Source: an uncultured Candidatus Micrarchaeota archaeon
GTDB taxonomy: Archaea > Micrarchaeota > Micrarchaeia > Burarchaeales > Fermentimicrarchaeaceae
Assembly: GCA_903884505.1 (NCBI GenBank)
Contig: CAISET010000030.1
Span: forward strand, 29,701 to 93,700
Direction of reading: 5' to 3'
Length of the DNA stretch: 64,000 bases
The position numbers and the translations under genes are program-made. Each line of letters opens with the position of its first letter. Positions within the stretch are counted from its first letter, which is position 1. Below, one piece after another: positions 1,633-43,003 of the stretch. Below the pieces are notes generated by a model. It saw only the letters and a list, made by a program, of their open reading frames with translations, was not told the DNA's origin and did not search any database.

Positions 1633-1669
1633 AAGCTACTCCGTCAATCATGACCTTTCGGTTCATCCT

Positions 1670-1991
1670 GGGACGGTGCGATCATCGCCGGCTAATACTC
1701 TGATTCGCAACTTTAAAAACAAGCCGGAAGCCGTGGAGGTTCAGGAACCAAGGATGTCCGACCGAGGAGCGAAGCGACGACCGAGGACACCATTGGTTCT
1801 GATGGGACGGTGCGATCATCGCCGGCTAATACTCTGATTCGCAACTTTAAAAACAAGCCGGAAGCCGTGGAGGTTCAGGAACCAAGGACGTCTGCGGGAG
1901 GAGCCCGCGACAAGCTTCGCCCCGTGGGGCGAAGGTGTCCCTTTGCGCTGAAGCGCAAAGAGGACGACCAAAGACACCATTGGTTCTGATG
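1670..1991 (+). repeat. Tandem duplication of an ~88-bp unit. Each unit carries a TTTAAAAA promoter-like box and is followed by a hairpin-module cassette closed by GAACCAAGG...CCATTGGTTC.
   Basis: Unit copies sit at ~1670-1758 and ~1804-1892 and are near identical. Cassette 1 is ~1745-1803 and cassette 2 is ~1878-1991. Cassette 2 contains the palindromes cttcgccccgtggggcgaag and ctttgcgctgaagcgcaaag. Both end with gacaccattggttctgatg. Confidence 0.7.
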
Positions 1992-9895: not shown

Positions 9896-9940
9896 GGCAT
9901 TCCTTTCGGCAGCCGGCTATTAATTGGTTTGGGGGTAGAG

Positions 9941-10060
9941 GGAACCAGCGATGTTGCCGAGCAGGGCGAGGCAACAGGCAGTCGCCAACGAAGTTGGCGA
10001 TGCGCAACGTGAGTTGCGTAGTTGTCGCCGAAGGCGACTTGAAGCCATCGGTTGGTTCCT
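9941..10060 (+). repeat. Hairpin-module MITE-like element (copy C), with GAGGGAACCAGCGATG...CATCGGTTGGTTCCTC inverted termini
   Basis: ~100 bp near-identical to the reverse complement of 20975-21072. Contains the hairpins gtcgccaacgaagttggcgat, gcgcaacgtgagttgcg and tcgccgaaggcga. Confidence 0.75.
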
Positions 10061-10546
10061 CTAAATTCTGTCCCCGAAGAAGTCGATTAACAGGTGAAGG
10101 AGGTAGCCAAGGGCGGCGAAAACGCCCACGAGCAGCGAATCATCTACTGAGAGATTGAGAAGAAGAAGGAAGGCGAAAACCAAAATTCCCCAGAGGAAGG
10201 CCGCTGACCACGAATGCATGACGCCGCGGTGGCCCGGGATGGAGAGTTCGGCAAGGGCGAGCAGCAGGAAGGGAAGGAAGAGCGCAAGGAGCGGGGAGAT
10301 TGCCGAGAATGTGGAGTAGAAGAGGACTACAATCAGGATTCCGAGCAAAAACACGGCAAGCCGGAAAGCCCTCCTGGGTTTTGATTTCCTGCTGTCTATG
10401 TCAGGCAGGAGCGAGCTGATGATGAAGACGAGCGAGGCAACGGCAGCGGTGGGGACTGGAAAGCCATGCATCTCGGCGATGAACGCGGATATGAATACTG
10501 CGCCAAGTATTCCGCCGATGAAATGCTCCCGAAACCCGGTCTCCAC
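10061..10546 (-). CDS. Membrane-bound metal-dependent hydrolase-like protein (DUF457/YdjM family)
   Basis: 161 aa polytopic, with conserved His/Asp 'LLPDIDS' and 'HLLIDFFGD'. Confidence 0.5.
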   Translation of the reverse strand: METGFREHFIGGILGAVFISAFIAEMHGFPVPTAAVASLVFIISSLLPDIDSRKSKPRRAFRLAVFLLGILIVVLFYSTFSAISPLLALFLPFLLLALAELSIPGHRGVMHSWSAAFLWGILVFAFLLLLNLSVDDSLLVGVFAALGYLLHLLIDFFGDRI

Positions 10547-13539: not shown

Positions 13540-14346
13540 ATGTGCAAGCTCTGCGAGTACGCAAGGACGAACGCGGCCTTCCGCAGTGACATGGCCAAGG
13601 GCGCGCTCGCGGACCTGGACCGTTTCTTCAAGACGAAGGCCCATGCGCCCGAGAGCACATCCCTCTTCTCGAACATGCCGGGCTGGGCCGCGCTGAAATC
13701 CGACTTCGCGCTCTTCGAGCCCCTTGCGGCATTTCCCAACCCCCAGTCTTACTACCAGCCCCTATATATAAACGGAGAGAAGCTGCGGAACGACTGGCAG
13801 AGCGGCTGGACCCGCAGCATCGGCTTCCTCCCGAACGGCAACCTCCTGCTCTTCGCGAAGGCTGTCGAGCGCGGGAGGTTCGCAGCCGCGCTGGAGACCT
13901 TCCAGCACCTCTTCATCGTCGAATTCAGGCCGGATGAGCTGCAGGTGGAATACTCGCCCCCGCAGTTCACCCTCCGCGCGGAAGAGGTCACGAAGGAGGG
14001 CACAACTCTCATTAGCGGTGCCAAGGTTTCGCACACATTTTCGTTCGCCTTCTCCCACCTCGCTGCGGAGAAGAGCGCTATGCGCGCAGATGCGATCAAG
14101 CAGAGCGCGTTCCTCCGCCAGGTCCTGCGCAGGGGGAAAACCGAGGAGGAGGCTGCGAAGGACAGGGGCATCACGGACGCCCCGAAGTCTGACTTCGAGA
14201 AGTTCATCATCACAACCCTCCATTATGCCCCCCACCCGCTCCTAATGAGGGGGTTCAAGGAGATGGGCTACGAGAATCGGTTCGCCCTGCAGATGGACGT
14301 GCCGAAATTCCTTGATGAGCACTTCAAGAGGCTGAAAGGGGCTTAG
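13540..14346 (+). CDS. Hypothetical protein
   Basis: 268-aa ORF with coding-like composition and no recognised motifs. Confidence 0.4.
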   Translation: MCKLCEYARTNAAFRSDMAKGALADLDRFFKTKAHAPESTSLFSNMPGWAALKSDFALFEPLAAFPNPQSYYQPLYINGEKLRNDWQSGWTRSIGFLPNGNLLLFAKAVERGRFAAALETFQHLFIVEFRPDELQVEYSPPQFTLRAEEVTKEGTTLISGAKVSHTFSFAFSHLAAEKSAMRADAIKQSAFLRQVLRRGKTEEEAAKDRGITDAPKSDFEKFIITTLHYAPHPLLMRGFKEMGYENRFALQMDVPKFLDEHFKRLKGA

Positions 14347-14362
14347 AGCTTCTTCTCAACCG

Positions 14363-14600
14363 AGAAACCCCCGATGCGCAGGTTTGAGTCGCCTTCGGCG
14401 ACAGCTGCGCAACTTCTGTTGCGCATCGCTCTTCGTTGCCAACGCGATTTGCGCTCGTTGCGCAACAAGCATCGCCCTTTGGGGCGATGATGCCCCCTTG
14501 TGCTTTCGCACAAGGAGGGATGCGTCGCTGTTCGCCCGCTGGCGAACATGCGAACGAACTCGCTCGCCGCGCATATCGTCGGTTTCTACGTTACTTCCGG
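14363..14600. mobile_element. Hairpin-module MITE-like element (copy D) flanked by an 18-bp direct repeat that duplicates the AMMECR1 gene 3' end
   Basis: Direct repeat TYAGAGYTTCTTCTCAAC at 14343-14360 and 14601-14618. Start of D matches the reverse complement of the 3' part of copy C (agtcgccttcggcgaca...gcgcaact...gttgcgcatcgc). Confidence 0.7.
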
Positions 14601-15200
14601 TCAGAGTTTCTTCTCAACTACTTTTCCGCCAGGCGTTTCCTCAGAGAAGATTTGCGCCTGGAATTTCAAAACCCTTACCCCTGGCTTCAGCCACGAATCC
14701 GGCGGAAGCCCTGCCTTCCAGCAGGCCTGGCAAAGGAATTCCTCGCTCCCCCATTTCTGCTCGACAGGCACCTGGGGGAGAAGCAATCCGGATTGCCGTC
14801 CTGCCTCAATAATCAGCCCGTCCCTGCCAACCTTCACCTGCTCAACGAGCTTCTTCCTGTCCTTCGCCTCAATAGGCTCGGGCACGGTCAGCACCGAGAC
14901 CTCAATCATGATGTTTTTCAATTCTTCCGCAGTCACTTCCGGGAACCTCGGGTCGCCTGTCGCAGCCTCAACCGCCATCTCAACAACCGATTCAGCGAGC
15001 GGCCCCTGCGGCCTGGGATAGCCTATGCAGCCCTTCAGCTCGCGCTCAGGGTAGCTTTCAAGAGTCACGAACACGCCCCTCGGTTCCATCAGGTGCTTCG
15101 GCGCGCCGCCGGGTGGCAGCCTGCTTCCGTTCTCAAGGTACGCGGCTATCGCCTTTCTCGCGAGCCGCACGAGGAATTCGCCGTCCGAAATCTTGAGCAT
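14601..15200 (-). CDS. AMMECR1-domain protein
   Basis: 'GCIGY', 'PRGVFVTL' and 'LLLPQVP' motifs, 199 aa, typical archaeal AMMECR1. Confidence 0.8.
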   Translation of the reverse strand: MLKISDGEFLVRLARKAIAAYLENGSRLPPGGAPKHLMEPRGVFVTLESYPERELKGCIGYPRPQGPLAESVVEMAVEAATGDPRFPEVTAEELKNIMIEVSVLTVPEPIEAKDRKKLVEQVKVGRDGLIIEAGRQSGLLLPQVPVEQKWGSEEFLCQACWKAGLPPDSWLKPGVRVLKFQAQIFSEETPGGKVVEKKL

Positions 15201-15388
15201 GCTTAGGATGAAGTGCAGCCTGCTAAATAAACATTAGCTCGCATTTTACTCAACTACAAGACAATAGATTTAAATATATTTCGGCACAAAACGATTCCGC
15301 TGGTTCTTCGTCTTTTGAGGTGGTTGCACCACCTCAGCTGTGCGGGAACTGTGAAAAGACTGGTTCTGTAAATTCTGAGGTGGTGTGG

Positions 15389-18300
15389 ATGTCGACTTCC
15401 GTGAACTCCGCGAAGTGGTTCCTGCTGGCAGCGCTGCTGCTGGCAGGCATGGCATGCGCAGCGGGCAATTCGGACATACCCGAAAGCTACAACAGGTTCT
15501 GGGAAGGCCCGAACACGGGATTATTTCCATGCATAACCAACCTCCCGCTTCTCAACCTCGAGAAAACCGATGTGATGGATGCGCCGGCAATTGCACGGCT
15601 TGAACTTCCAGCGGGCTTCTCGGCGGTGAGGGAAAAGATGCAGAACGCAAGCGAAAAAATCAAGGCGGCCAAGGAAGGCTCCGTGCGTTTTCTCGGCATA
15701 TCGTTCTTAATCTTCGAGGTCGGAGAGAAAGTCCGCCTTTATGCAGATGGAAATCCCTACCCGATGTTGGCGAGCACGACATTTTGCGGGATGTCGGAAG
15801 AATCAGCGGATATATGGATAATAACCGAACCAGCCATGTACTGGAAGTGCCATGAGCTTTGGCAGGCGAACGAACAGGCCTGCAAGGCAATGGGCGATTC
15901 CCTTGACGCGCTGCAGGCGGCGGCATACGCCTCAAACGATGCGCGGGATGCAGCCGCTTCGCACCTTGAAACCCTCGGGAGGATGGGCGCCGATTACGGG
16001 AACTACTCCGGCTCCGCGAGAGGCGTTTATTCCGATTCAAAGGAAGCCCTGGAGGCTGACCCAATCATCGCTTTTAACGGCTCGCGGGAGATAACGCTGA
16101 GATACGATGACCAGGCGCCTAGGTTCGCTGCCGCATACGTTTCCGCATACGATGTGAAGACGGCATTCGAGAACGGCTCTGCCCAGTTCGAACGGCCGGA
16201 TTCCTACGCCGCGGCGATAGACCTTATGGCGGGGAGGGACGAGAACCTGGTGACCGGCTGGGCCGCAGTCTACTGGAACATCGATTCCGCAATCTCCGGC
16301 ATGGAAAGCGAATGGAACGGCAGTGAACGGGCGGCGGATGCGGAATATAGCGACGCGGATTCGGCCGTGGCCGCACTGGAGGAAGACGGTTACTCCAAGA
16401 TTACCGCAGACCTCATCTCGAATTTCAGCGAGGCAGCCACGGGCCCAATCCACGGCTCATTCAACGCGGCGCCTCCTGATGAGCGGGTGGCGAACGCAAG
16501 GGCGATGCTGCAGGGCGCAAATGCGAACATAACGGAAGCGCGCCGCCTTTCAAATGCGGAGTACGAAGAGGATTACCTCGCGCGGGCGATTGAAACTAGC
16601 CAGCGGGCGCACAGCTCCATCACGTCCGCGAAAAGCATGGCTGAGGAGGCGAAGGCGGAGGTTGAGGAGATAATCTCGGCAGCAGACGGGCTCTATGGCC
16701 TGAAGAGCAGCGAGGTGAGGAGCGCAATCGATTCCTTCAGCACAGAAACTCCCGGAAGCGCGAGGCTGAAGGCGAATGCCGAAACGGACTACCGAGAAGC
16801 GGTTGGGCTCGCGGCTACAGCGAGAGCCGGAACTTCCGGAAAGCACCTTGCCGGCCTTGCAGCTGCGCTTGGGAAGCTCGAATCCGCAAAGCTCTGGCTC
16901 AGCGATGAGAACGTGAGCATCGCAATCAGAAGGGATGCGGCCCGCGATGAACTGGCGAGGCTGAATGCAACGCTGAACAAGGCGGAGCATGACGGGATTG
17001 GCGTCACCTCCGAGCGGGACTGGCTCAACAATGCCATGCAGGGGCGTGACTCCGGGACTGCAGAAGATATGGAAAACTTCAAGGAGAAGGCGGAGCTGGC
17101 TGAGGAGGAGGTTTATGCGAAGGCAGCTGCGCAGTTCGGCTATCTTGACTGGCAGGTCTCCGCGCTTGACTCGACAATCTCCGCAATCCGCAGCTACCGC
17201 TCCATCCTGGGGAGCGCTGCCGAGCTCGAGGCGAAGTTCCGCGAATTCGACGAGCTGAAGAGGAATTACGCGAGTGGGGGGACGCTGGTTCCCGAGAAGG
17301 CGCTTGGCCATTATCTAGAGATAGCGGACAAGCTTGATGCGATTTCGCAGGAAGTGGAAAGCAACAAGGCGAAGATGATCCAGGAAATGATGGAGAAGAG
17401 CGCCAGATATGATGTGGCCTGGGAGGGCGAGCCAATCCTCGATGAAGAGATGTCGGCGCTGGTCTCGGTAAGGCTCGCGAACGAGCTTCCGTTCGGCACA
17501 AACAGCTCGCTCAGCGTTTCCATTCCCGGAGATTTCCCATCGGGCCTTTCCGTGGTCTCAAAAGATGCGGCAATCTTCTCCGTTGATGCGACCGGCACGA
17601 AGATTACGGCCTACTTTACCTCGGTTTCCGCAGGCAGCGCATATTCCATTTCGCTGAAGGGAAGCGGCGCGGAGCCGGCACGCAGCGTCGGAAGGCAGCA
17701 GGGGAACATAACCTCCCTCCACGAGCAGGAGCTTGTTGGCAGCGAAACGCTGGAGTTCGAGGCCCTGCGGGACCTTGACCGCCTGGCAATTCCTATGGAA
17801 ATCCCGGAAGGCACGGGCAGGCTTTCCGCGGAGATGGAGAACGGCAGGGTTGCGGAAGTGGTGAATTCCGATGGAATGGCACTTGTCTCCGCCGAAAGGG
17901 TGCGCAAGGGAAGAGGTAGCGTCACACTGGCATACCACATCCCGAACCCCTACTTAGTAACCGAGGGCGATGCGGAAGTGCGGAAAATAGACAACCTGAC
18001 CGCACGCATCACCTACAATGTTACGGTATCTTCGCGCGCCATGGACCTTTCGGACGTTCCAGTCCTCATATTCGTCCAGAACGTGAGCGGCGAGGAAGGC
18101 GTTTCCGTCCGCGGGCTGGATGGCGCATCGCTGCGTAACTTCGAGCAGCAGCCTTCGCAGGGAGGCGTGTCAGTCTCCTGGAGCATCAGGAGTCTTGGCA
18201 AGGGGGAGAGCGCAACCTACGAAGTCTCTTACGCGATAAGCGACCCCGGCGAATATGCCGAGTGGTTTTATTCGCAGGATGCTTTGCTCATCAATTCGCT

Positions 18301-19612
18301 TGATGAGGCCGGTCTCATTCCCGAGGCGCGCTTGGATGCTTTGAAGGGAAAGCTCGCGGACGCCCGCGGCCTGCTCGACAGCCAGAAATGTATGGAGGCG
18401 ATAGCGGAACTGAAGGGGCTCAGTGCGGACGCGCAGAAAGCAGCCAAAGACTCGCAAATTCAGGAGACTGCGAGGGCAGGTTACTACGATGAATTGGCGC
18501 AGTTTAAGAAGGAGAAGGCGGCGCTCGGGAATCTGCACGATGGGCTCTTCTCCGCGGGCTTGGACAGCGAGGCACGCAAAGTACAAACTGCGCTCGATGC
18601 TGCGGGCGAATCCGAGGATGAGGCGGCAGGGCTTGCGGACGATTTGAATTTTGGCTCCGCAAAGGCGAAAATTTCCGACGCGCGCAAGTCGCTCCATGTC
18701 GACCTTTCGGGCCCGCTCAACAACAGGGTGGAGTCGCTTTCCAAGGAGGCTGACCTGCTGAATAAGCGGGGCCATGCCCTTTCGCTCCTGGACAATGAGG
18801 CAAACCTCAGCGATTTCCAGGTGGAACTCGCGGGAATCCGCTCGTCCATCTCCGATGCGGACTATTCTTCGGCAGCAACCGGCATCGCGGGACTGAACCG
18901 CTCGCTTTCGGCAAAGGAAGGCGAAACGGACGCGGGCTTCGGCCGGCTTGTCCCGGAGTTCGAAGGCTATGCGCGCGAAGTCTCCGAATTGAAGATAGTA
19001 TTCGGGGCGAACTTGGTGGAATTCTCAAAATCTTCGAAAAACGAGACCATCCTGGGGCAGGCGAGAAACGATTTGGCCGAGCTCGGCAGGCTCGATTCCC
19101 TGCTCTCAAACTTCTCGAGCTCCCCGGAGAAGCCGAAGTTCCTAGAGGCGAACGCAGAGAAGCTCGCAGGGATAAGCGCGGAGATCGCCACGCTGAACGG
19201 CACGAGCGCCAGCCTCGCCCAGGCAACGCAGGCCTACGCCAAGCTCGCGAACAGCTCCTTCTCGGAGGCCAGCCTGAAGCTCGAGCAGGCGCGGAAAATA
19301 GTCCCTGCAAGCGGGCAATACGCGGATAGGCTGCAGAACCTCACCTCAATCCTCAGCGATGCCGAGTCCGCACTCACTGCAAACAATTACGCGGATGCGG
19401 CAGTCCTTTCGGAGAAGGTAAGGGCGGGGGCGGAGCTGCTGCTTTCCGCAGCCTCGCAGGTCGAGCAGAAGGAGGCGGGCGCCGGCTTTTCGTTCCAGCC
19501 GGTCTATCTCCTTCTTCCGCTCCTCTTCTTCCTCGCGCTCGGCTACGTCTTCCTGAAGAAGAGGCCCGAGAAACCGCAAGAGGCCAAGCCAATCCAGCGC
19601 CTAGAATTCTAA
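15389..19612 (+). CDS. Giant alpha-helical, coiled-coil-rich surface protein with signal peptide and C-terminal TM anchor
   Basis: Probable start 'MSTSVNSAKWFLLAALLLAGMACAAG'. C-terminus 'FSFQPVYLLLPLLFFLALGYVFLKKRPEK'. AT-rich TATA region upstream contains the palindrome gaggtggttgcaccacctcag. Confidence 0.65.
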   Translation: MSTSVNSAKWFLLAALLLAGMACAAGNSDIPESYNRFWEGPNTGLFPCITNLPLLNLEKTDVMDAPAIARLELPAGFSAVREKMQNASEKIKAAKEGSVRFLGISFLIFEVGEKVRLYADGNPYPMLASTTFCGMSEESADIWIITEPAMYWKCHELWQANEQACKAMGDSLDALQAAAYASNDARDAAASHLETLGRMGADYGNYSGSARGVYSDSKEALEADPIIAFNGSREITLRYDDQAPRFAAAYVSAYDVKTAFENGSAQFERPDSYAAAIDLMAGRDENLVTGWAAVYWNIDSAISGMESEWNGSERAADAEYSDADSAVAALEEDGYSKITADLISNFSEAATGPIHGSFNAAPPDERVANARAMLQGANANITEARRLSNAEYEEDYLARAIETSQRAHSSITSAKSMAEEAKAEVEEIISAADGLYGLKSSEVRSAIDSFSTETPGSARLKANAETDYREAVGLAATARAGTSGKHLAGLAAALGKLESAKLWLSDENVSIAIRRDAARDELARLNATLNKAEHDGIGVTSERDWLNNAMQGRDSGTAEDMENFKEKAELAEEEVYAKAAAQFGYLDWQVSALDSTISAIRSYRSILGSAAELEAKFREFDELKRNYASGGTLVPEKALGHYLEIADKLDAISQEVESNKAKMIQEMMEKSARYDVAWEGEPILDEEMSALVSVRLANELPFGTNSSLSVSIPGDFPSGLSVVSKDAAIFSVDATGTKITAYFTSVSAGSAYSISLKGSGAEPARSVGRQQGNITSLHEQELVGSETLEFEALRDLDRLAIPMEIPEGTGRLSAEMENGRVAEVVNSDGMALVSAERVRKGRGSVTLAYHIPNPYLVTEGDAEVRKIDNLTARITYNVTVSSRAMDLSDVPVLIFVQNVSGEEGVSVRGLDGASLRNFEQQPSQGGVSVSWSIRSLGKGESATYEVSYAISDPGEYAEWFYSQDALLINSLDEAGLIPEARLDALKGKLADARGLLDSQKCMEAIAELKGLSADAQKAAKDSQIQETARAGYYDELAQFKKEKAALGNLHDGLFSAGLDSEARKVQTALDAAGESEDEAAGLADDLNFGSAKAKISDARKSLHVDLSGPLNNRVESLSKEADLLNKRGHALSLLDNEANLSDFQVELAGIRSSISDADYSSAATGIAGLNRSLSAKEGETDAGFGRLVPEFEGYAREVSELKIVFGANLVEFSKSSKNETILGQARNDLAELGRLDSLLSNFSSSPEKPKFLEANAEKLAGISAEIATLNGTSASLAQATQAYAKLANSSFSEASLKLEQARKIVPASGQYADRLQNLTSILSDAESALTANNYADAAVLSEKVRAGAELLLSAASQVEQKEAGAGFSFQPVYLLLPLLFFLALGYVFLKKRPEKPQEAKPIQRLEF

Positions 19613-19662
19613 CAAGAGCATTCGCATCCCGCAAAGAATTCGCGGGCAGCGCATTCGCGAGC

Positions 19663-19832
19663 TCAGCAGGAAAACTCGCATAACCTTTCTTTGGTGTCGC
19701 CCTTCGGGACGAATTCGCCTTCGGGCGAAATGTCCGCGTCCGAGACGCGGACGCTCCTCGCCATCCAGCAGGGGCTCGTCGCTCGACATCCTAAGAAACG
19801 TTAACGAAAGAATTCAGCAGGAAAACTCGCAT
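19663..19832. mobile_element. Small hairpin-rich element (G) flanked by the 19-bp direct repeat TCAGCAGGAAAACTCGCAT, which duplicates the 3' end of the Cas4-like gene
   Basis: Direct repeats at 19663-19681 and 19814-19832; both encode 'CEFSC*' on the minus strand. Internal hairpins tcgccttcgggcga and gtccgcgtccgagacgcggac. Confidence 0.55.
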
Positions 19833-20494
19833 CCTTCCCTGAATTCACAGACAAGGCATTTCGCAGGCTCCCCGCACGCGAGCTCCCTCCGCTCGAATCT
19901 TCCCTCAAGTATTCCCGCAAACCTTTCAAGCCTGGAAGCCACAAACCCCGCGTCGAACGGCTTGGGCTCTCCTTTTCCAAGTGGATGCCTTCCCAGCAAA
20001 TCCCGCTCGATTATCCGGTAGTAGATATCGAAGCCGCGCAGGACTCCCTCCCCGAGTTCCCTTCCCCTCACCCTCATAATCCCGTTCGCCAGCCCGTTGC
20101 AGTAAGCGGACAGCTGGCATTCGTATTTCCCCGAGAACAGCCCGCCAGCCCTCGATGTGAATTTCTCATCGCAGACAACAACCGACCTTCCGAATTTCAG
20201 CAGCTTGTCGAGCCTTCCGGAGAAGGTGAGGCCGCCAAACGCAAATCTCACGCTCACCGCCTCATTCGGGAACTCGAGCGCGCTTCCCTCGTCCTGCAGC
20301 CGGCGCAGCAGTTCATCAACGCTGACAGCCTCGTATTCCTTCTCCGCATCCTCCTCCGCGGAGATGGCATGCTGCCTAGTGCCAATTGCCACGCAGGGGC
20401 GGAAGTGCGGCCTCCTTTCCTCAAGAAAATGATAGACGGGCTTGAGGCCGCAGAACTCCACGTCCGCGAATTTGGAGATAGGGACGGCTCTCAT
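19814..20494 (-). CDS. Cas4-like / RecB-family PD-(D/E)xK nuclease with Fe-S Cys cluster (DUF83-like), standalone
   Basis: N-terminal Cys ('FCGLKP'), 'GRLDKLL', 'VVVCDEKF', QxxxY motif ('QLSAY'), C-terminal 'CGEPAKCLVCEFREGC'. Confidence 0.65.
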   Translation of the reverse strand: MRAVPISKFADVEFCGLKPVYHFLEERRPHFRPCVAIGTRQHAISAEEDAEKEYEAVSVDELLRRLQDEGSALEFPNEAVSVRFAFGGLTFSGRLDKLLKFGRSVVVCDEKFTSRAGGLFSGKYECQLSAYCNGLANGIMRVRGRELGEGVLRGFDIYYRIIERDLLGRHPLGKGEPKPFDAGFVASRLERFAGILEGRFERRELACGEPAKCLVCEFREGCEFSC

Positions 20495-20497
20495 AGC

Positions 20498-20623
20498 CTA
20501 TCCGACCTTCAGCTCAAGCCGCGCCCCATTCCGCTGTATGACGGCTCCGGTGCTCACCCTTTCCAGCCTCGCAATCAGCTCCTCCAGCTGGTCGAACGTC
20601 AATTCGGTCACATCCATTTTCAT
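20498..20623 (-). CDS. Small 41-aa protein immediately upstream of the Cas4-like nuclease
   Basis: 'MKMDVTELTFDQLEELIARLERVSTGAVIQRNGARLELKVG'. RBS gaggtgagggca precedes the ATG. The longer ORF call runs through repeat element E and is unlikely. Confidence 0.4.
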   Translation of the reverse strand: MKMDVTELTFDQLEELIARLERVSTGAVIQRNGARLELKVG

Positions 20624-20627
20624 TGCC

Positions 20628-20780
20628 CTCACCTCGGAACCCCGGTTGGCGCTGCGCTCGCTTGCGCGACCACGCAACACCTTCGGTGTTGCGCAAACGC
20701 ACCTTCGCTTGCGCCATATCCAGTCGCCTCCGGCGACTGCCTGTTGCGCGTTGCGCAACATCCTCGGTTCCTGAACCTCC
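20628..20780. repeat. Hairpin-module MITE-like element (copy E)
   Basis: GGAACCCCGGTTGG...CCTCGGTTCC termini. Modules gcgcaacaccttcggtgttgcgc and gtcgcctccggcgac. Ends ggttcctgaacctcc, as copy F does. Confidence 0.7.
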
Positions 20781-20829
20781 GTGAGCTGGTGCTGGACTGC
20801 TTTTAAAGAAGGGGAAGCGCACGTGGTTT

Positions 20830-21080
20830 CCAGTAAGAACCAATGGTTGGCATCCTCGCTGGCGCTCGTTGCCATATCCGGTCGCCTCCGGCGATTGATT
20901 TCGCCTTGCGGCGAAAGCTGTCGCTTTGCCGCGGGCAAAGCGCCATTGAGTCGCCTTCCGGCGACAGCTCAAATCGCCTGCGGCGATAACTGCGCAACTC
21001 ACGTTGCGCATCGCCAACTTCGTTGGCGACTGCCCGTTGCCTCGCGCTGCTCGGCAACATCCTTGGTTCCTTAACCTCCA
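20830..21080. repeat. Hairpin-module MITE-like element (copy F, longest; about seven tandem hairpin modules)
   Basis: GAACCAATGGTTGG...CCTTGGTTCCTTAACCTCC termini. 20975-21072 is the reverse complement of copy C. Modules gtcgccttccggcgac, gctttgccgcgggcaaagc, tgcgcaactcacgttgcgca and tcgccaacttcgttggcga. Confidence 0.75.
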
Positions 21081-21087
21081 CGCAAAA

Positions 21088-22077: not shown

Positions 22078-23469
22078 GATTCAACTTGATTTGCGGAACA
22101 GTTTTATTCTTCCTCCACCAAAATCCATGCATGCCAACGACCGTGGCCCCAAACCAAACTAAGACTAAAACCGGCAGCGAAGCGGCTCTGGAGAATAGGG
22201 CGAAAGGGCTTCTCAATCGCTTTGGAGATGCGATGGCAGAACTTCGTGGGCCTGAGTTTTACAGTTCAGCCCATTGGCTGTTCAAACTCCATGATGAAGA
22301 CCCCGCCCTCTTCAATCTTGTCTGGTACCGCTACACGGAGAAGATGGGACGCGTCGAGCCGACCAAGACGCTCACCGTTCCCCAGCAGCGCGTGGACCTC
22401 GAACGGGCATGCCCTCCAACAGAAAGAGAAAAGATGAAATCCGAATGCGATGCTTTAGGCGAAGCGCTGACGCAGAGGATTCCGAGCCGCCGCTTCGCCT
22501 CCATAATCTTCTCCCTCCGGTCTCATTTTGTGATTGGAGATTTATTTATCCAACATCATCCTTTGTGGGAAGATAATGACTCAAAGCTTGCTGCGAAGGT
22601 CATGCGTCTTCTAGCCAGCACCGATAATTTAGCGCATCGTGACCTAATCATGCGCGCGCTGTCAAACGGCGCCGAATTCAAGGGGGATGTGCTCAACGAG
22701 GATATGCTTGCGGGGCGGATTCATAGGATTGTGAATGGGAACAAGGAACTGCGGCTGTTCATAATCTGGGGCGGAGTAAAATGGAGCGAGGAGGGGACCG
22801 CGGACCTTTGGGATGAAAAGGCGGTGGAAACGCTGAAGGCAATCCAGGGGCGCGTCCGCGCCGTCTACCCGAACACCTCGGTGGAGCTTATTATCTGCGA
22901 CGTCCATGCCGCCGACTTTGCGGGCAAGCCGCTGGAACACGTCTACCGCTACGCCGGAAACCAGGGCTCAGCCGCGGATGCGAAGACGCTCCACGCCCTC
23001 GCAAAAAAGCACGGGCTTAAGATGGTGCCGCTTTCGGAGATATATGACTATTTCAAAGGAAGAGGGATGCAGGGGGAGCTTGCGAGAGCTGAGCGCAAGG
23101 AATATCTGAAGTCGCGCGAGATACTGAAAAGAGACGTGGCGTATGCGCGTCTCCTCGACGATGCGGCAGAGAAGCATTCAGATCTTGTCAGGGAAGGAAT
23201 CAAGAAGAAGGAGCAGGCGGCATTGGACTACTTGGCAAGGAGGCGCTTCGAGGCGAAGCTCTTCCAGATGTGGTGTCCGGATGCAGTTTTCTTGAGCTTT
23301 GCCGGTGATACGGAGAGAGAGAAATACATCATCAGCTCGCCAATTCCCGTAATTTGTATCTATCCATACAGGAAGAGCACGAAGAGCGACCTGCCCTGGT
23401 TCAGGGACATGCGCACAGAGGACCGAGAGTCGTTCCCACCTCAAGAATTCGAGAATTAGGATTCAACTT
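22063..23469. mobile_element. 1.38-kb insertion between convergent histone genes, bounded by a 25-bp direct repeat GAATTCGAGAATTAGGATTCAACTT
   Basis: Direct-repeat copies at 22063-22087 (histone 3' end) and 23445-23469 (3' end of the 457-aa ORF). Both encode 'EFEN*'. Confidence 0.6.
22086..23459 (+). CDS. Hypothetical 457-aa protein (cargo of the direct-repeat-flanked insertion); alternative start at 22131
   Basis: Long ORF with coding-like composition and no recognised catalytic motif. The C-terminus 'QEFEN*' is encoded by the direct repeat. Confidence 0.5.
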   Translation: MICGTVLFFLHQNPCMPTTVAPNQTKTKTGSEAALENRAKGLLNRFGDAMAELRGPEFYSSAHWLFKLHDEDPALFNLVWYRYTEKMGRVEPTKTLTVPQQRVDLERACPPTEREKMKSECDALGEALTQRIPSRRFASIIFSLRSHFVIGDLFIQHHPLWEDNDSKLAAKVMRLLASTDNLAHRDLIMRALSNGAEFKGDVLNEDMLAGRIHRIVNGNKELRLFIIWGGVKWSEEGTADLWDEKAVETLKAIQGRVRAVYPNTSVELIICDVHAADFAGKPLEHVYRYAGNQGSAADAKTLHALAKKHGLKMVPLSEIYDYFKGRGMQGELARAERKEYLKSREILKRDVAYARLLDDAAEKHSDLVREGIKKKEQAALDYLARRRFEAKLFQMWCPDAVFLSFAGDTEREKYIISSPIPVICIYPYRKSTKSDLPWFRDMRTEDRESFPPQEFEN

Positions 23470-23479
23470 ATTTCTTTCT

Positions 23480-23686
23480 TTAGTCTGCCAGCCGGATATC
23501 TTCTTCCGTTACTGTCTTTCTCCCGGCGTGTTTCGCCAGTTTCGCGGCCTTTGCCGCGATGCGGCCCGCCTGCTCCTCAAGAACGTCGCGGAGAGCCGAG
23601 GCTGCCTGCGGAGAGACGCGCGTCGCGCCGGATTTCCTGATGAGCCGCTCGACGGCGGCTATCGGAAGTTCTGCCATAAGAAGCAC
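23480..23686 (-). CDS. Archaeal histone (HMf family), second copy
   Basis: 'MLLMAELPIAAVERLIRKSGATRVSPQAASALRDVLEE...AGRKTVTEEDIRLAD'. Confidence 0.85.
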   Translation of the reverse strand: MLLMAELPIAAVERLIRKSGATRVSPQAASALRDVLEEQAGRIAAKAAKLAKHAGRKTVTEEDIRLAD

Positions 23687-23696
23687 CTAACAGAAT

Positions 23697-23777
23697 CTAC
23701 TCGAACTCCTCCTCTTCCTCCTCTTCGTACTCCTCCTCATCCCAGTCTTCCTCTTCCTCCTCGTCATCGTCAAACAT
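23697..23777 (-). CDS. Ultra-acidic 26-aa micro-protein (MFDDDEEEEEDWDEEEYEEEEEEEFE), 10 nt upstream of histone 2
   Basis: ATG preceded by a gaggtga RBS at appropriate spacing. Uninterrupted GAG/GAA run. Not in the ORF track (<60 aa). Confidence 0.35.
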   Translation of the reverse strand: MFDDDEEEEEDWDEEEYEEEEEEEFE

Positions 23778-23847
23778 TTAGGGCTCACCTCGTTGAAAGC
23801 GCGTTTCTTATTGCCCATGTGGTTAATAAGGCTATCGCCGCCCCCTT

Positions 23848-24465
23848 TCAGCTGACGCGGCTCTTCTGCGGCTTTTTCGGGGTTTCCGGGCTTTCCGTTA
23901 TCTTCCGGAGGGCTTTCTCACTAATCTTCTGATAACTATTTAGGCGGAAGAGCAAGTTCTCCAGCGTCTGCTTCGGGACGAGCCACTCGTTCTCGTGCTC
24001 CCTGCGCCAAGCGGCAATCTCTCCGCCTGCCTCTTTGTGGATAATGCTTGACACTTCCACCGCGCCGTTCATCTTCACCATGGTCCAGGCCTTCTTGTTG
24101 AGCACCTGCCAGAGCTTGAGTCCGGGCTTTTCCCCAAGAATGAGATTGGAATCGCCAATTGGCGCAACCGCATAAACTTCAACCCCGCGGAACTTGGGTG
24201 CGACATACATCCAGCCGATTGCGCCGGCCTTCAGGTCAGCGATTGAGAAGCCAGCAGGCTTATCGATTCCATAGGCCGCGACAACCGCGAGCTTTAGCCC
24301 GCCCTTTATCTGCCTCTCCATCTCTTCGAGCGTTTCGCCTCCCTTCACCGCCGCCTTCCATTCCTTGTAAAGGCTCCGGAAATCATCCCAGTCAAAGTCG
24401 TCGCCGACGTCGCCGCAGAGTATGCGGACGCGGACCTTTTTGGCCTCATTTTCTGCCATGCCCAT
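23848..24465 (-). CDS. Hypothetical protein
   Basis: 205-aa ORF with no recognised motif. Confidence 0.4.
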   Translation of the reverse strand: MGMAENEAKKVRVRILCGDVGDDFDWDDFRSLYKEWKAAVKGGETLEEMERQIKGGLKLAVVAAYGIDKPAGFSIADLKAGAIGWMYVAPKFRGVEVYAVAPIGDSNLILGEKPGLKLWQVLNKKAWTMVKMNGAVEVSSIIHKEAGGEIAAWRREHENEWLVPKQTLENLLFRLNSYQKISEKALRKITESPETPKKPQKSRVS

Positions 24466-26319: not shown

Positions 26320-26459
26320 CGCGAGGTTTATAAATTCCCACTTCCCCAATACAGTCCTGCTCATTTTACTGTCGTAGATGAGCTTGATGAACCCCCAACG
26401 GGGGATTCGCAACATGCGAGCATGTTGCGGGTTTGCACGGGGGGCGAGGGTGATTTCAA
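26320..26459 (+). promoter_or_regulatory. Promoter (TTTATAAATT) plus structured 5' leader of the L7Ae operon, with a tandem GATGA...GATGA (C-box/K-turn-like) motif and palindromes
   Basis: TATA at 26327-26336. gtaGATGAgcttGATGAacc at 26374-26393. Hairpins cccccaacggggg and gcaacatgcgagcatgttgc. Confidence 0.4.
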
Positions 26460-26978
26460 ATGGCAAAGGGTTACGTGGAATTCGAGACTTCGAAGGAGCT
26501 CCAGGAGAAGGCCTATCAGGCCATAGAGATGGCCAAGGACACTGGAAGGCTCAGGAAGGGGATGAACGAGGCGACTAAGGCCGTTGAGAAGACCGGCTGC
26601 GCACTAGTCGTAATCGCCGAGGACATTGACCCGCCTGAGGTCGTGATGCACCTGCCAGGGCTCTGCAGGGAGAAGAAGATTCCCTTCATGTATGTTGCTG
26701 GGAAGAAGGAGCTCGGCAAGAGCGCGGGCCTAACTGTTCCCTGTGCTGCTATCGCGATCGAGAAGCCGGGGAACGCTCAGGACCTTGTGAACGAGATAGT
26801 CGCGGGCCTGGGCGGAAAGGGCAAGAAGGCCGAAAAGAAGGAGGAGGCCCCGGTTGAGGCGCCTGCGGCAGAGGCTCCAGCGGAGAAGCCCAAGAAAGAA
26901 AAGAAGCCCCGCGTGAAGAAGGAGAAGCCCGCTGAGGCGAAGCCAGCAGAGATTAAGCCTGAGGAGGCAAAGGCCTAA
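26460..26978 (+). CDS. rpl7ae: Ribosomal protein L7Ae with an unusual C-terminal K/E/A/P-rich ~50-aa tail
   Basis: '[51 protein letters not shown]', followed by '[44 protein letters not shown]'. Confidence 0.85.
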
Positions 26979-28343: not shown

Positions 28344-29486
28344 ATGGCTAAATCGTATTCCGCATTAATAGTATTGTGCCTAGCTTGTCTCGTGTTCACA
28401 ACAGGTAGCGCATTCGGCAATGTAATCCAGATTGATCTTGGCGTGCCAGTGAATGGCTCGGTAAGCGCATCGCAACGTATCATCAATTATTCGTACCACG
28501 TACATGCCGGCGAGGAATACGAGTTCATATTCGAACCGCATCTTGCAGATGCCCGGATAATAACCGTTGGATATGCAACCGCTGCGTCCGCAGGTCACGA
28601 AAATAGAGGGCGCGTGACTGCAGAGCGGACAGGGTTGCAGTACTTCCAGATTGCATTCGAAGACCCATACTCTACGACGTATACGGTCACTGTAAACCAG
28701 ACCACCCACTATGGCTGCAGTACGCACACAACATGCGGAACGTGTGTTCAGGTATCGTCCTGCGGCTGGTCAAAATTTGAAGGATGCGTGCATAATAGCT
28801 CGGGCGAACTGGACTGGTTAGTTTTTTCAGCCTCACAATGCCCCACGTCAAGCCCGGTTGATTGCGCCAGTTCAGATGCGGCAGTACAAATCGAAGCCAA
28901 TTCCCTGACAAATGGTTTCCTTGGTCGGGACAATGTGCAGGCGTGCTACGGGTTTGCCACAATCGGCAGTGGGACGTATACCGTTATGCTTATCACAGAT
29001 GCACAAAACATCGCGCTCGCAGTTTACGACGCGGACGGCTATATAATCTCGGCCGGACCCGGAATAACCGGTTCCGTTTTCGGCGCTTCTGGCGGCAGCC
29101 ATTATTCAATTGCAGTATGGAAGAACAATTCCAATCCTGCGGCGTTCAACCTTTCAGTCGCGCAGGGGCTCAATGCGATATTCACGCCTACCCCTACACC
29201 TTCGCCAACCGCAACTCCGACACCAACTCCGACGCCGAACTCGACTCCTACCTCTGCGCCGACCGCAACTCCATCTCAAACGCCCTCACCTGTGCCATCT
29301 CCATCACCGACTCCCAGCAGCACTGCGACTCCGCTGGTGATAGCAACTCCTGGCGGGAATGCGCGCGATTCACATAACGGAAGCGTGCTGCTGGTTGCCG
29401 GTGGGGCTTTGCTGGCCGTGGTACTCGTTGCACTGGCGGCCATTCTAGCCTATTTCCTGCTTAGGAGGCGTCGAAAGCACCTGTGA
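28344..29486 (+). CDS. Secreted protein with PT-rich linker and C-terminal TM anchor plus basic tail (archaeosortase-signal-like)
   Basis: Signal '[25 protein letters not shown]', '[23 protein letters not shown]...', C-terminus '[32 protein letters not shown]'. Confidence 0.65.
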
Positions 29487-29546
29487 GCTTGCGTTTAGGC
29501 AGGCGCCCCTGGAAGGCCTATTAAGCCTTATCGACAAAAGCAATTC

Positions 29547-30038
29547 ATGATTCTTCCGAAGCATGAGCTCCAGGAGCGGAAGGCAGTCTCTGGCTTCCTC
29601 TCGGACTCCCAGTTCCAGCCCGCGGGCGTCGATTTGACGCTCCGCGAGGCCTTTTCCTTTTCTTCAGAAGGCAGCGTAGATTTCGACAACTCGGAGAGGA
29701 AGTTAGCGGAGACAAAACCGCTGGCATTCGATGAAAAAGGCTGGCTCCATCTTCCGAAGGGCGCATACAAAGTCGTATATAATGAAATAGTTTCCATCCC
29801 TTCCGACTGCGCGGGCCTTGCATACCCGCGCTCAACTCTTCTGAGGTGCGGCGCGTTCCTCCATTGCGCGGTCTGGGACCCGGGCTACAAGGGGAGGAGC
29901 GAGAGTTTGCTTGTGGTGGAGAATGAAAAGGGCATAAGGCTGAAGAAAAATGCAAAGTTGGTCCAGCTAATCCTCATCAAGCTGACCTGCGATGCGAAGG
30001 AAACCTACAAGGGCAAATACCACAACGAGAACCTCTGA
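29547..30038 (+). CDS. dCTP deaminase / dUTPase-family protein
   Basis: 'AGVDLTL' and 'VWDPGYKGRSE' motifs. Confidence 0.65.
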   Translation: MILPKHELQERKAVSGFLSDSQFQPAGVDLTLREAFSFSSEGSVDFDNSERKLAETKPLAFDEKGWLHLPKGAYKVVYNEIVSIPSDCAGLAYPRSTLLRCGAFLHCAVWDPGYKGRSESLLVVENEKGIRLKKNAKLVQLILIKLTCDAKETYKGKYHNENL

Positions 30039-30088
30039 GCGCAATCTGATTTTAAAACCATCGCCCCAAACGTACTTCGGGTGTCACC

Positions 30089-31033
30089 ATGAAGTATGTC
30101 CTCGTCCTGCTAACTCTTGCCGTTTTCCTGCTGCCTGCCTTCGCGATCATGCCGAGCCCAACGCCGGTTGATTCGGACCACGATGGCATTCCTGACAGCA
30201 CGGACAATTGCGTGCTCGTCCCCAACCCCACACAGGCGGACAGGGACCTCGACGGGATAGGCGATGCCTGCGACACGTGCATACGCGTCTCCAATCCCGG
30301 CCAGGAGGACCGCGACGGCGACGGCGTTGGCGACGTTTGCGACAATTGCGTGGATATCTCCAACGCAAACCAGAATGACGGCGATGGCGATAACATTGGT
30401 GATTTGTGCGACAACTGCATTCTCGTTCCCAACCCGGACCAGCTGGACAGCAACGGAAACGGGATAGGCGATGCCTGCGAGGCCGCGGCGCCAACCCCAA
30501 CGCCTACGCCAACTGCAATCCCGACACCTACTCCCACTGCAACGCCAACCCCAACACCAACCCCAGTTGCCTGCGGCAACTACTGCGAGTACGGCGTCCT
30601 TTATAGCGGCGGCTACTACGATGCTGGACAGATGAAATGCGTTTATCAGAACAGGTATGGCTGCCTCACCATCTGCAATGCGAACGGTACGGCTTGCGCG
30701 ACAGCCACATCAACTCCGGCACCAACGCCCACTCCTACGTCCGCGCCAAGCCCGACTTCCACTTCGGAGCCGACTGCAACGCCAACCCCGACATCTGCTC
30801 CAACTCAGACGCCGGCGCCAGAGCCAACTGCAACTCCAACTCCGGTTCCAACGCCTACTCCGGCACCCACGCCCGTTCCAACTCCTACGCCAACCCCCAC
30901 ACCATACAGTGCTACGCCAACGGCAACGCCAGCCGCATCCCCCACCCCGCAGCCCAGCGCATGCCCGCTATTCTTCGTGCTGCCGCTCTTCGGGAGTGCG
31001 GCTGCGCTGTTTGCGCTGAGAAGAATGGAATAG
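30089..31033 (+). CDS. Secreted Ca-binding thrombospondin type-3-repeat protein with PT-rich linkers and hydrophobic C-terminus
   Basis: Repeated 'D.D.DG..D..DNC' units (DSDHDGIPDSTDNC; DRDLDGIGDACDTC; DRDGDGVGDVCDNC; DGDGDNIGDLCDNC; DSNGNGIGDACE). C-terminus 'CPLFFVLPLFGSAAALFALRRME'. Confidence 0.7.
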   Translation: MKYVLVLLTLAVFLLPAFAIMPSPTPVDSDHDGIPDSTDNCVLVPNPTQADRDLDGIGDACDTCIRVSNPGQEDRDGDGVGDVCDNCVDISNANQNDGDGDNIGDLCDNCILVPNPDQLDSNGNGIGDACEAAAPTPTPTPTAIPTPTPTATPTPTPTPVACGNYCEYGVLYSGGYYDAGQMKCVYQNRYGCLTICNANGTACATATSTPAPTPTPTSAPSPTSTSEPTATPTPTSAPTQTPAPEPTATPTPVPTPTPAPTPVPTPTPTPTPYSATPTATPAASPTPQPSACPLFFVLPLFGSAAALFALRRME

Positions 31034-41851: not shown

Positions 41852-43003
41852 ATGGCAATGTACGACGTGATTGTTGTCGGCGCCGGCCCTGGCGGCTCGA
41901 GCGCGGCCCGCGCATGCGCGAAGAAGGGGCTGACGGTGCTCCTCATTGACCAAGCGGAATTCCCGCGCTACAAGCTGTGCGGGGGCGGCGTAACTGAAGC
42001 GGCGAGGCGCCTCCTCGGCTTCAACATCCCGAAGGAGATTGCCGAGAGGGAGGCGCGCGGGATGAGGTTCATCCACGAAAATGTCTCCCTTGAATTCAAA
42101 TCCAGCAGGCGCGTGGTCACCATGGTGATGCGCGACGCCTTTGACAATTTTCTCGCGGAGAAAGCCGTTGATGCGGGCGCTGAATTCGCCCAGGGCGAGA
42201 GGGTGCTCGGAATGAAGAAAGGCAGCAACTGCGTCGAACTCGCCACCTCAAAAGGCATGAGAAAGGCGCGCTGCGCAATCGGCGCGGACGGGATAACCAG
42301 CGTGCTTGCCAGCTCCGTCCGCCCGCCATTCCACAGGGACGAGATTGGCGCGACCGTCGGTGCGGAGATCCCGGCGAAGGAGAAAGAGATAGACCGTGAA
42401 TTCGGTGACATGGTAGAGATAGAGACCGGCATGCTCGGGTTCGGCTACGGCTGGATATTCCCTAAAAGGCGCACGCTCTCCTTCGGCTACGGCGCATACC
42501 TTGACAACTCCGCGGGAGTCCGCGGCGCGCTCATAGGCTATCTGGGGAGGCACGGTTTCCGCAGCGGCTACAAGATAACCGGGCACATGATTCCGTTCGG
42601 CGGAACCATGAAGCGGTGCTGGGGCAACCGCATCCTGCTCGCAGGCGATGCCGCGGGCTTCGCGGACCCGTTCCACGGGGAGGGGATAAGATATGCCATT
42701 CGCTCGGGCCAGATAGCGAGCGAGGTCCTTGCGACTGCGCTCGAGGACAGCGACCTTTCGGAAAAATCCCTCGCCCACTACGGCGCGCGCTGCTACGACG
42801 AGTTCGGCAGGGAGCTGAAATGGGCGCGCAGGCTCGCGAGGGTCGTATACCGCGACTTCGGCCTCTTCTTCCACCTCGCGAAGAAGAACCCGTCCGTCCT
42901 CGAGAACTACTGCAAGACCATTTTCGGCGAGCTCGGCTACAAGGAGTTCTTCCTCTGGTCCGCGCCCCGCTTCCCCATGTTCGCGCTCAAGAGCGTAGTC
43001 TGA
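41852..43003 (+). CDS. Geranylgeranyl reductase-family FAD-dependent oxidoreductase
   Basis: 'YDVIVVGAGPGGSSAA' FAD motif and 'LLAGDAAGFADPFHGEGI'. Confidence 0.8.
   Translation: MAMYDVIVVGAGPGGSSAARACAKKGLTVLLIDQAEFPRYKLCGGGVTEAARRLLGFNIPKEIAEREARGMRFIHENVSLEFKSSRRVVTMVMRDAFDNFLAEKAVDAGAEFAQGERVLGMKKGSNCVELATSKGMRKARCAIGADGITSVLASSVRPPFHRDEIGATVGAEIPAKEKEIDREFGDMVEIETGMLGFGYGWIFPKRRTLSFGYGAYLDNSAGVRGALIGYLGRHGFRSGYKITGHMIPFGGTMKRCWGNRILLAGDAAGFADPFHGEGIRYAIRSGQIASEVLATALEDSDLSEKSLAHYGARCYDEFGRELKWARRLARVVYRDFGLFFHLAKKNPSVLENYCKTIFGELGYKEFFLWSAPRFPMFALKSVV

Follow-up and report, generated by a model that had tools for sequence, protein, structure and literature searches.

A hairpin-array element between duplicated gene tails at a convergent gene junction of a Micrarchaeota genome

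The nuclease junction and its repeated gene tail

The subject of this study is E4, a hairpin-rich, non-coding element of 132 nt lying between a gene for a PD-(D/E)XK (Cas4-like) nuclease and a large gene converging on it, within a stretch of DNA from an uncultured Candidatus Micrarchaeota archaeon (contig CAISET010000030.1, positions 29,701 to 93,700). The whole stretch of 64,000 nucleotides is called here the window, and all coordinates are those of the window unless a related locus, designated by an L number, is named. The gene content of the window—histones, L7Ae, S28e, L24e and RtcB—fits an archaeal chromosome, and protein relatives of its nuclease and AMMECR1 come from metagenome-assembled genomes of Candidatus Micrarchaeota. 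Few cellular genomes are as compact as those of the DPANN archaea, in which many convergent genes overlap; to our knowledge, the persistence of mobile DNA in such genomes is poorly documented. The junction is made up of the following features:

15320..19612, plus strand: large convergent gene, 1407-1430 aa, without a Pfam family, TAA stop at 19610-19612
19609..19629, minus strand: third and oldest tail copy (relic), GGATGCGAATGCTCTTGTTAG, reading GCECSC*
19630..19662, minus strand: spacer of 33 nt between the second and third tail copies, read from the sequence
19663..19681, minus strand: far repeat copy, a non-functional duplicate of the tail, abutting the GGTTA end of E4
19682..19813, minus strand: element E4, 132 nt, non-coding, with the ends TTCTTTCGYTAACGTTTCTTAGGATGTCGAG ... 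GGCGACACCRAAGAAAGGTTA
19714..19752, plus strand: two perfect internal hairpins of E4, in a 43-nt stretch missing from the shorter copy of a relative (L005)
19814..19832, minus strand: gene-side repeat copy, the functional nuclease tail, (A)TGC GAG TTT TCC TGC TGA, i.e. CEFSC*
19814..20494, minus strand: PD-(D/E)XK (Cas4-like) nuclease gene, 226 aa, PF12705 (PDDEXK_1) at 26.9 bits against a cut-off of 22

A previous inspection of the DNA without database searches, referred to below as the sequence-only reading, had described a 19-bp direct repeat that flanks a hairpin-rich segment and duplicates the last codons (CEFSC*) of the nuclease gene. The repeat is exact: within the 64 kb, TCAGCAGGAAAACTCGCAT is found at 19663-19681 and 19814-19832 only, with zero extra matches at up to three mismatches (0.01 expected from shuffles). 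The downstream copy, taken at that time for the true 3' end of the gene, is indeed so, the open reading frame (ORF) at 19814-20494 on the minus strand ending in ...EGCEFSC* and 19814-19832 comprising its final 18 nt plus one base. A scan of the whole window for local direct repeats (17-mers with up to two mismatches, at a spacing of 30-450 nt) yielded, outside coding repeats, only the nuclease-tail case and a second one at the tail of the AMMECR1 gene, plus neighbouring hairpin elements. Concerning the protein, residues C15, C207, C213, C216 and C222 are invariant across 10 homologues, the C207-C222 group representing a C-terminal Cys cluster, and the duplicated codons contain the invariant Cys222. 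It should be pointed out that the label 'Cas4-like' covers the fold only; no CRISPR-Cas context is seen.

The tail is present at the locus once more. The relic at 19609-19629, the stop of which shares 2 nt with the TAA of the convergent gene, matches the real nuclease tail of the relative L011 at 18 of 21 positions, this being the sole match in the 64 kb (0.01 expected). The 33-nt spacer that separates it from the far repeat copy forms a hairpin CCCGC...GCGGG, and its minus strand holds CGAATTCTTTGCG, resembling the TGAATTCTTTCG junction on the left side of E4; this spacer may have been left behind by an insertion that preceded E4. The sequence-only reading had seen an extra 21-bp insert in this place, which is better read as part of the older relic tail and spacer that make up 19609-19662, the insert belonging to the 33-nt spacer. 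With three tail copies at 19609-19832, the locus has therefore passed through at least two rounds of tail duplication. A minor feature of the same region is the word GAATTC, found five times in 244 nt (19604-19847); three of these sites correspond to Glu-Phe codons within or beside the tails of the two convergent genes and the duplicated copies, one lies inside the putative spacer remnant and one inside E4.

Structure of E4 and dispersal of its family

The inverted-repeat arms of E4, located at ~19681-19700 and ~19784-19803, close a long stem, the segment being enclosed by an imperfect inverted repeat in which TAACCTTTCTTTGGTGTCG pairs with CGACATCCTAAGAAACGTTA. The earlier description of the segment as hairpin-rich is well founded: its folding energy is -90.4 kcal/mol, compared with -69.6 ± 4.8 kcal/mol for shuffles (z = -4.4), and both hairpins named at that time are present, i.e. 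TTCGCC-TTCG-GGCGAA at 19714-19729 and GTCCGCGTC-CGA-GACGCGGAC at 19732-19752. The sole ORF across E4 (62 aa) has no support as coding.

Contigs of sediment metagenomes from the Joint Genome Institute were scanned with the left arm of E4, AACGTTTCTTAGGATGTCG. Seven of the eight matching stretches hold a full element, which, with the window copy included, gives five different loci—the nuclease tail (L019 = L005), L014/L017, L015, L016 and L018/L021; as a further candidate locus, L020 was rejected, being a chance 19-mer match without an element. The ends of the family are invariant over 40 nt on the left (TTCTTTCGYTAACGTTTCTTAGGATGTCGAG...) and 21 nt on the right (...GGCGACACCRAAGAAAGGTTA), and the interiors vary from 81 to 180 nt; the termini of E4 itself are 97.5-100% identical to those of copies at four or more other loci in contigs of related Micrarchaeota. 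The consensus fold consists of a 17-bp outer stem, formed by the arms TAACGTTTCTTAGGATGTCG and CGACACCAAAGAAAGGTTA and invariant in the four folded copies, and of an inner stem in which two pairs are compensatory; the window copy exceeds the 81-nt basic form seen in L005 by two internal hairpin stretches. E4 is matched at 82.5 bits (E = 4.6e-20) by a covariance model built from four copies of the family, which detects no further copy in the window. At L016, the element adjoins a tRNA-Pro(TGG) gene at its 3' end, overlapping it by 1 nt and without a duplication; the gene (11427-11535 of L016, minus strand) has a 34-nt intron and is detected by ARAGORN only with introns allowed. E4 is thus, as the dispersed copies show, a member of a mobile, MITE-like (miniature inverted-repeat transposable element) non-coding family. 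The scans of viral contigs with the arms of both hairpin-element families of the window, i.e. the E4 family and the one described below, gave no matches, and a virus or plasmid link of these families was rejected on that basis.

As a separate observation, the near-identical contigs L017 (2303-2577) and L014 (1838-1861) are distinguished by a stretch of 253 bp lying between the copies of a 22-nt direct repeat, ATCCTGAAGCCGAARCAAYAAA. The stretch, holding a promoter-like TTTATA and an ORF for a small membrane protein, is an indel without hairpins, although its repeat is of similar length; both contigs also differ from each other in the interior of the neighbouring hairpin element.

The nuclease junction in relatives

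The site occupied by E4 is free of the element in six relatives (L007, L008/L009, L011, L022 and L023). If the repeat were part of a terminator structure conserved in all orthologues, which the sequence-only reading had named as the outcome that would overturn its claim, both should be present there; all six related loci, however, are without the element as well as without the repeat. In L008/L009, L022 and L023 (49-53% amino acid identity), the gene order is conserved, and a 4-nt overlap (CTAG) is found between the nuclease gene and the large gene. In L011, which is the closest relative (82.7% nucleotide identity in the nuclease gene), and in L007, the tails end in ...TGCGAATTCTCCTGCTAG (...TGCTAG), with no element.

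The relatives L005/L006 (78% nucleotide identity), on the other hand, have an E4 of only 81 nt at this position, with their own version of the tail on either side—TGCGAGTATTCGTGCTGA as the gene-side copy and TGCGAGTATTCGTGCTAG as the far copy. The CTAG of the latter doubles as the stop of the convergent gene (...KKLDF*). It follows that the gene originally ended at the far copy, and that the element and the near copy were inserted. These alignments show the far repeat copy to be the relic of the old gene tail. The E4 copies of the window and L005 share their boundaries, the GAA junction and the subfamily markers GACGAG/GAGGAG and CCAAAG, and, judging from these features, they look like one event.

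Other DNA has also entered here. At positions 1-101 of L007 there is an E4-type element with nested ends of the second family, upstream of a promoter at a spot matching that of the window element E6 (see below), and a gene of the HVO_A0114 family adjoins the nuclease gene in both L007 (1314-1739) and L011 (1134-1873); in L011, whose contig reaches far enough, it forms with a DUF7718 gene a toxin-antitoxin-like pair between the nuclease gene and the large convergent gene. The nuclease junction is therefore an insertion hot spot.

Recurrence at the tails of other genes

The same pattern of a doubled gene tail around a hairpin element was found in three places beyond the nuclease gene of the window, namely at AMMECR1, at the nuclease gene of the 78%-identical relative and at purQ. 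The AMMECR1 locus of the window consists of:

13540..14346, plus strand: convergent gene opposite AMMECR1, 268 aa
14343..14360, minus strand: relic AMMECR1 tail, GTTGAGAAGAAGCTCTAA, its stop overlapping the TAG (14344-14346) of the convergent gene
14361..14600, plus strand: element E3, 240 nt, an array of ~7 hairpins, second ('GGAACC-type') family
14601..14618, minus strand: functional AMMECR1 tail, GTTGAGAAGAAACTCTGA, i.e. VEKKL*

The two tails, TTAGAGCTTCTTCTCAAC (14343-14360) and TCAGAGTTTCTTCTCAAC (14601-14618), agree at 16 of 18 positions; translated from the minus strand, each gives VEKKL*, with which the AMMECR1 gene (14601-15200, minus strand) ends. The architecture at 14343-14620 had been equated with that of E4, and the layout is the same; the two elements, however, belong to different families, the end pairs being TTCTTTCGYTAACGTTTCTTAGG...CCRAAGAAAGGTTA for the E4 type and GGAGGTTMAGGAACC...GGTTCC for the GGAACC type. 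The empty site for E3 is represented by L013, in which the AMMECR1 stop stands directly against the orthologue of the 268-aa gene. Concerning purQ, the E4-family copy of L018 lies between GTGGAATTCGCGAAGAAGGAGTTCTGA and GTGGAGTTCGCGAAGGAGAAGCTCTAA. Both are forms of the purQ tail (VEFAKKEF* and VEFAKEKL*), and the far form stands against the TCA stop of a 547-aa gene converging on purQ.

The distance between the element and either repeat copy is 0-2 nt in each of the four tail cases; the duplication is therefore likely to have been made by the insertion event itself. Since the flanking repeats differ at every locus, they are derived from the target and not carried by the element. At the other convergent junctions in the window, the genes lie close together, the gaps being -77, -26, -4, 10 and 29 nt. 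The wide convergent gaps at 23459-23848, 59930-60186 and 43003-43129 were considered as further element sites and dropped, as they hold small genes instead. The gene-side stop is TGA in 4/4 cases, but this is not significant, TGA making up 51% of the stops in the window.

Insertion with tail duplication and the alternatives

Based on the above results, it appears probable, if far from certain, that a mobile hairpin element was inserted at the nuclease junction with a coupled duplication of the gene tail, which kept both convergent genes intact. A Micrarchaeota genome would have been colonised by small non-autonomous hairpin-array elements bounded by inverted repeats. In the presumed ancestral state, the nuclease gene and the large gene overlapped at their stops (CTAG) with zero intergenic DNA; E4 would have inserted into the last nuclease codons, duplicating ~16-22 bp of the target, so that a complete tail CEFSC* would end the gene side and the old tail would stay against the stop of the convergent gene. 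As the tail would be duplicated on insertion, both reading frames would stay intact. The insertion may have gone together with either a break of variable stagger or a replicative copying event, and the fill-in of a staggered break by some enzyme would generate the duplication. Selection in a compact genome would keep, at gene ends, only those insertions whose duplication spans the tail, which would account for long duplications being found at gene tails and not at non-coding sites; such selection is plausible in view of the duplicated invariant Cys222 and of the tight convergent junctions. After its insertion, E4 may have grown by nested gain of small palindromic modules. Its arms, with T-rich runs such as TTTCTT in the path of both converging genes, may also serve as a two-way transcription stop.

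If this is so, hairpin-array elements can enter the zero-length junction of head-on genes because the gene tail is copied simultaneously, and the locus would be a clean natural example of mobile DNA entering overlapping convergent gene junctions. New intergenic DNA would have been built here stepwise, as three tail copies and nested hairpin modules. For annotation, the consequence is that such elements create pseudo-tails and false ORFs, the latter exemplified by the 125-aa call through E5 described below.

There are several observations that weigh against insertion with tail duplication. The length of the duplication varies, from 16-19 bp (E3, E4 and L005) to at least 25 bp (L018); the E4-family copies in non-coding DNA (L014, L015 and L016) have duplications of 0-5 bp, and none is seen at E5 and E6 when L011, with its element-free intergenic region, is taken as the reference. 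Because the non-coding copies show 0-5 bp only, the duplication is not a fixed-length transposase footprint. In L012, the AMMECR1 tail is duplicated (~28-36 nt; shuffle p ~0.002) with only a 15-nt spacer, the far copy having the CTAG overlap; therefore, either a tail can duplicate without a full element, or the element collapses later. At the nuclease junction, both repeat copies carry substitutions of their own lineage (TTTTCC in the window and TATTCG in L005), and a single old insertion followed by neutral drift fails to explain such changes in both copies. It also does not fit with the lack of E4 in the closest relative, L011, or with the 61 terminal nt of E4 being identical between lineages whose genes are 78% identical. 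The alternatives are sequence exchange between the repeat copies across the hairpin and repeated insertion at the site. Finally, a Pfam scan covering ~57 ORFs of the window and another 10 from related contigs revealed no transposase, integrase or Cas1, and no autonomous element with the same inverted repeats was seen in the 64-kb window or in the examined related loci.

It is conceivable, albeit rather doubtful, that an archaeal insertion mechanism not yet described operates here, with long duplications (16-25 bp or more) permitting the insertion into overlapping gene ends without harm to either gene. Exchange templated across the hairpin, or else recurrent site-specific re-insertion, would then keep the copies identical, and either process would account for the lineage-specific changes found in both copies in the window and in L005. 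If it is true that the long duplications are an enzyme footprint, they point to an archaeal integration machinery not yet known.

The reverse order of events—slippage that tandem-duplicates the overlapping gene ends and so makes a neutral spacer, with hairpin elements landing in it later—has to be weighed next, and seems unlikely. It would accommodate the doubled AMMECR1 tail of L012, where the 15-nt spacer contains no recognisable full element, the mere 33 nt that separate the third tail copy from the second in the window and the missing duplications at the non-coding insertions; local tandem duplication around elements of this kind is, moreover, demonstrated by E1a and E1b (see below). A later insertion, however, could have split the neutral copy of ~17 nt at any point, and the contact within 0-2 nt on both sides in 4/4 cases does not suggest this. 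The L018 case was, in addition, found via an element arm and not via a repeat, and is thus an unbiased sample. Furthermore, the spacers of L012 and of the window contain sequences resembling element ends (TCAGG...GGGGTTCC; GAATTCTTTGCG) and may be collapsed elements.

A process of still lower probability is replicative template switching in the manner of microhomology-mediated break-induced replication (MMBIR) or fork stalling and template switching (FoSTeS), in which a stalled strand copies a hairpin element elsewhere and re-primes upstream, no transposase being needed. The variable duplication lengths (0, 4-5, 16-19 and at least 25 bp) would be expected, as would small target deletions, which are possible at E5, and no transposase was found in the window. 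Possible junction microhomologies, TTC/TTCT on the left and TG on the right, accompany every E4-family copy. Mosaic interiors are shared between the families, since the interior of L018 is 86% identical to that of E6 over 59 nt. The latter likeness means that both families draw on one pool of small palindromic modules, those common to them being xTCGCC-loop-GGCGAx and TGCGCAAC-loop-GTTGCGCA. All six E4-family copies, nevertheless, have exactly the same two ends, which points to a defined cleavage or recognition event, and the microhomologies are of 1-4 nt only, at few junctions.

The idea of a locus-bound structured RNA or two-way terminator, with the repeat as a part of the structure and no mobility, is very improbable overall. 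It could draw on the strong fold (z = -4.4), the compensatory changes at two inner pairs, the 61 nt of E4 termini that have remained identical between lineages with genes 78% identical, and the T-rich runs in both arms (TTCTTTCGTT... and CCTTTCTTTGG) that, as read from the sequence, face the incoming genes from both sides. The segment, however, is missing at the orthologous site in six relatives, and the same element stands at unrelated loci, including those beside the tRNA-Pro gene and upstream of promoters. The direct repeats are unable to pair with each other, and the orientation of the elements with respect to flanking genes is inconstant, E2 and E6 being oppositely oriented although the flanking genes of both are on the minus strand. 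A scan of 19400-20000 for bacterial-type promoters and terminators gave zero sites, the criterion of a GC-rich stem plus a T run being unmet, and no match at the gathering score was obtained with Rfam 15 in the window, where the tRNA/tmRNA scan also yielded none.

A miniature integrative element moved by a tyrosine or serine recombinase, the repeats being attL/attR cores, is hardly credible, for although the insertions at gene 3' ends with the tail restored and the copy abutting the tRNA-Pro 3' end recall such integration, it is contradicted by the locus-specific repeats (unrelated between the nuclease, purQ and AMMECR1 loci, none at tRNA-Pro, and with no matching core in the element), no integrase was found in the window, and an element of 81-180 nt is too short for an attP arm.

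Comparison with known systems

A literature search for such elements in Micrarchaeota or DPANN archaea gave nothing specific. Among known systems, the MITEs—such as the SM elements of Sulfolobus, the haloarchaeal MITEs and the Correia elements of Neisseria—are alike in their non-coding nature and size (81-240 nt here), ~19-nt terminal inverted repeats, dispersed near-identical copies, presence or absence between relatives, mostly intergenic sites and target-derived repeats at some sites. Terminal inverted repeats, identical ends in six copies dispersed over five loci, and orthologous sites that are empty for E4 (six relatives), E3 (L013) and E5 and E6 (L011) were all found. MITEs, however, usually duplicate 2-11 bp of a target, whereas the duplications seen here vary (0-5, 16-19 and at least 25 bp), reaching 16-25 bp or more at gene tails. 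The interior is also different, being an expandable array of palindromic modules common to two families, and no partner transposase is known. The element thus behaves as a MITE in most respects, except for the lack of a fixed duplication length.

The repetitive extragenic palindromic (REP) sequences, the bacterial interspersed mosaic elements (BIMEs) built from them and the REP doublets forming hairpins (REPINs) are likewise short GC-rich palindrome arrays that vary in number and orientation between genes, and no duplication is seen at non-coding sites; the 81-nt basic form of E4 is, like a REPIN, one long imperfect hairpin, and the hairpin modules share the words TCGCC/GGCGA and GCGCAA/TTGCGC. 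Unlike them, each unit here has distinct outer inverted repeats, and long gene-tail duplications are not a feature of REP sequences. No Pfam match to a REP-associated tyrosine transposase (RAYT) or to another Y1/HUH transposase was obtained among the window ORFs, and no common flanking tetranucleotide was seen. REP-like palindromes in archaea are reported by a general survey tool (PMC12306157), but their architecture is not the one seen here.

The integrative elements of the att type arrive at the same outcome, a complete gene 3' end being kept and a second copy of the end lying beyond the element; they, however, carry the end copy with them, the same one at every integration, whereas here it is derived from the target and differs from locus to locus. 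Casposons are known for unusually long target duplications and for a liking for gene 3' ends, including those of tRNA genes. Their duplication is, nevertheless, fixed at ~14-15 bp and made by the Cas1 casposase, and with lengths from 0 to at least 25 bp and no Cas1 found in the window, a casposon-derived element was rejected. The palindromic elements of Rickettsia and the mycobacterial interspersed repetitive units (MIRUs) are palindromic repeats that persist in gene-dense genomes without destroying reading frames. They are read through in frame or supply overlapping start/stop codons, in contrast to the duplication of the host gene's own tail in the present case.

Three further candidates were discarded. 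The arms do not fit the RYYYAAC / GTTRRRY consensus of integron attC sites, as compared by eye. Separate subterminal hairpins and a conserved target tetranucleotide, as in the ends of the insertion sequences of the IS200/IS605 type, are lacking, the right flank of the E4-family copies showing only a weak preference in that it always starts with (N)TG; the IS200/IS605 elements are reported to be common in Micrarchaeota (PMC13343696), but the ends of E4 are unlike that family. Translational bypass and an intron of the bulge-helix-bulge type were dropped because the stop codon precedes the element, so that removal of the latter leaves the protein unchanged.

Other hairpin elements and features of the window

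The remaining hairpin elements of the window are:

1735..1991, plus strand: E1a and E1b, tandem 134-nt unit (duplicated region 1669..1991)
~9925..10065, plus strand: E2, matching E6
~20625..20790, minus strand: E5
~20825..21085, minus strand: E6, E5 and E6 lying on either side of a conserved promoter, both being insertions relative to L011

The elements E1a/E1b, E2, E3, E5 and E6 are linked by significant similarity and have ends of the type GGAGGTTMAGGAACCRAGGATG ... GGTTCC, whereas E4 has no similarity by BLAST to these five other elements of the window. E3 matches both E2 (blastn, 88% over 43 nt) and E6, and E2 and E6 are 92% identical over 102 nt. This likeness, together with the lack of hairpin clusters in the relatives L009-L013, points to a recent spread of these elements. 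It should be noted that in L009, a relative at 53% identity that otherwise has no hairpin clusters, two adjacent perfect hairpins, GTTGCCCC-TGC-GGGGCAAC and CAGACTGGC-TCACG-GCCAGTCTG, occur at 3286-3334.

The 134-nt unit of E1a/E1b comprises 73 nt of flank and an element of the GGAACC type, the tandem copies being 95% identical over 102 nt; E1b has two perfect hairpins (1915-1934 and 1941-1960) that E1a is without. Taken together, they show local duplication and module gain around hairpin elements. The promoter-like stretch between E5 and E6 (20793-20834) is 93% identical to that of L011, whose whole intergenic region is ~78 nt. A 41-aa gene (20498-20623, minus strand), which precedes the nuclease gene, has E5 in its 5' leader; the public-assembly call of a 125-aa gene (20498-20875) reads through E5 and is probably an artefact. 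A lone perfect hairpin of the same module type, CGCAACATG-CGAG-CATGTTGCG, is found at 26408-26429, ~30 nt upstream of the L7Ae gene (26460-26978).

Repeats of another kind are present as well. Pro/Thr-rich repeats with a 12-nt period extend over 29193-30949, in and around a probable surface protein gene (30089-31033), and the same region holds four 69-nt thrombospondin type-3 repeats (PF02412) at 30203-30480. Low-complexity repeats similar to those at 29193-30949 occur at 48851-49068 and 60729-60826.

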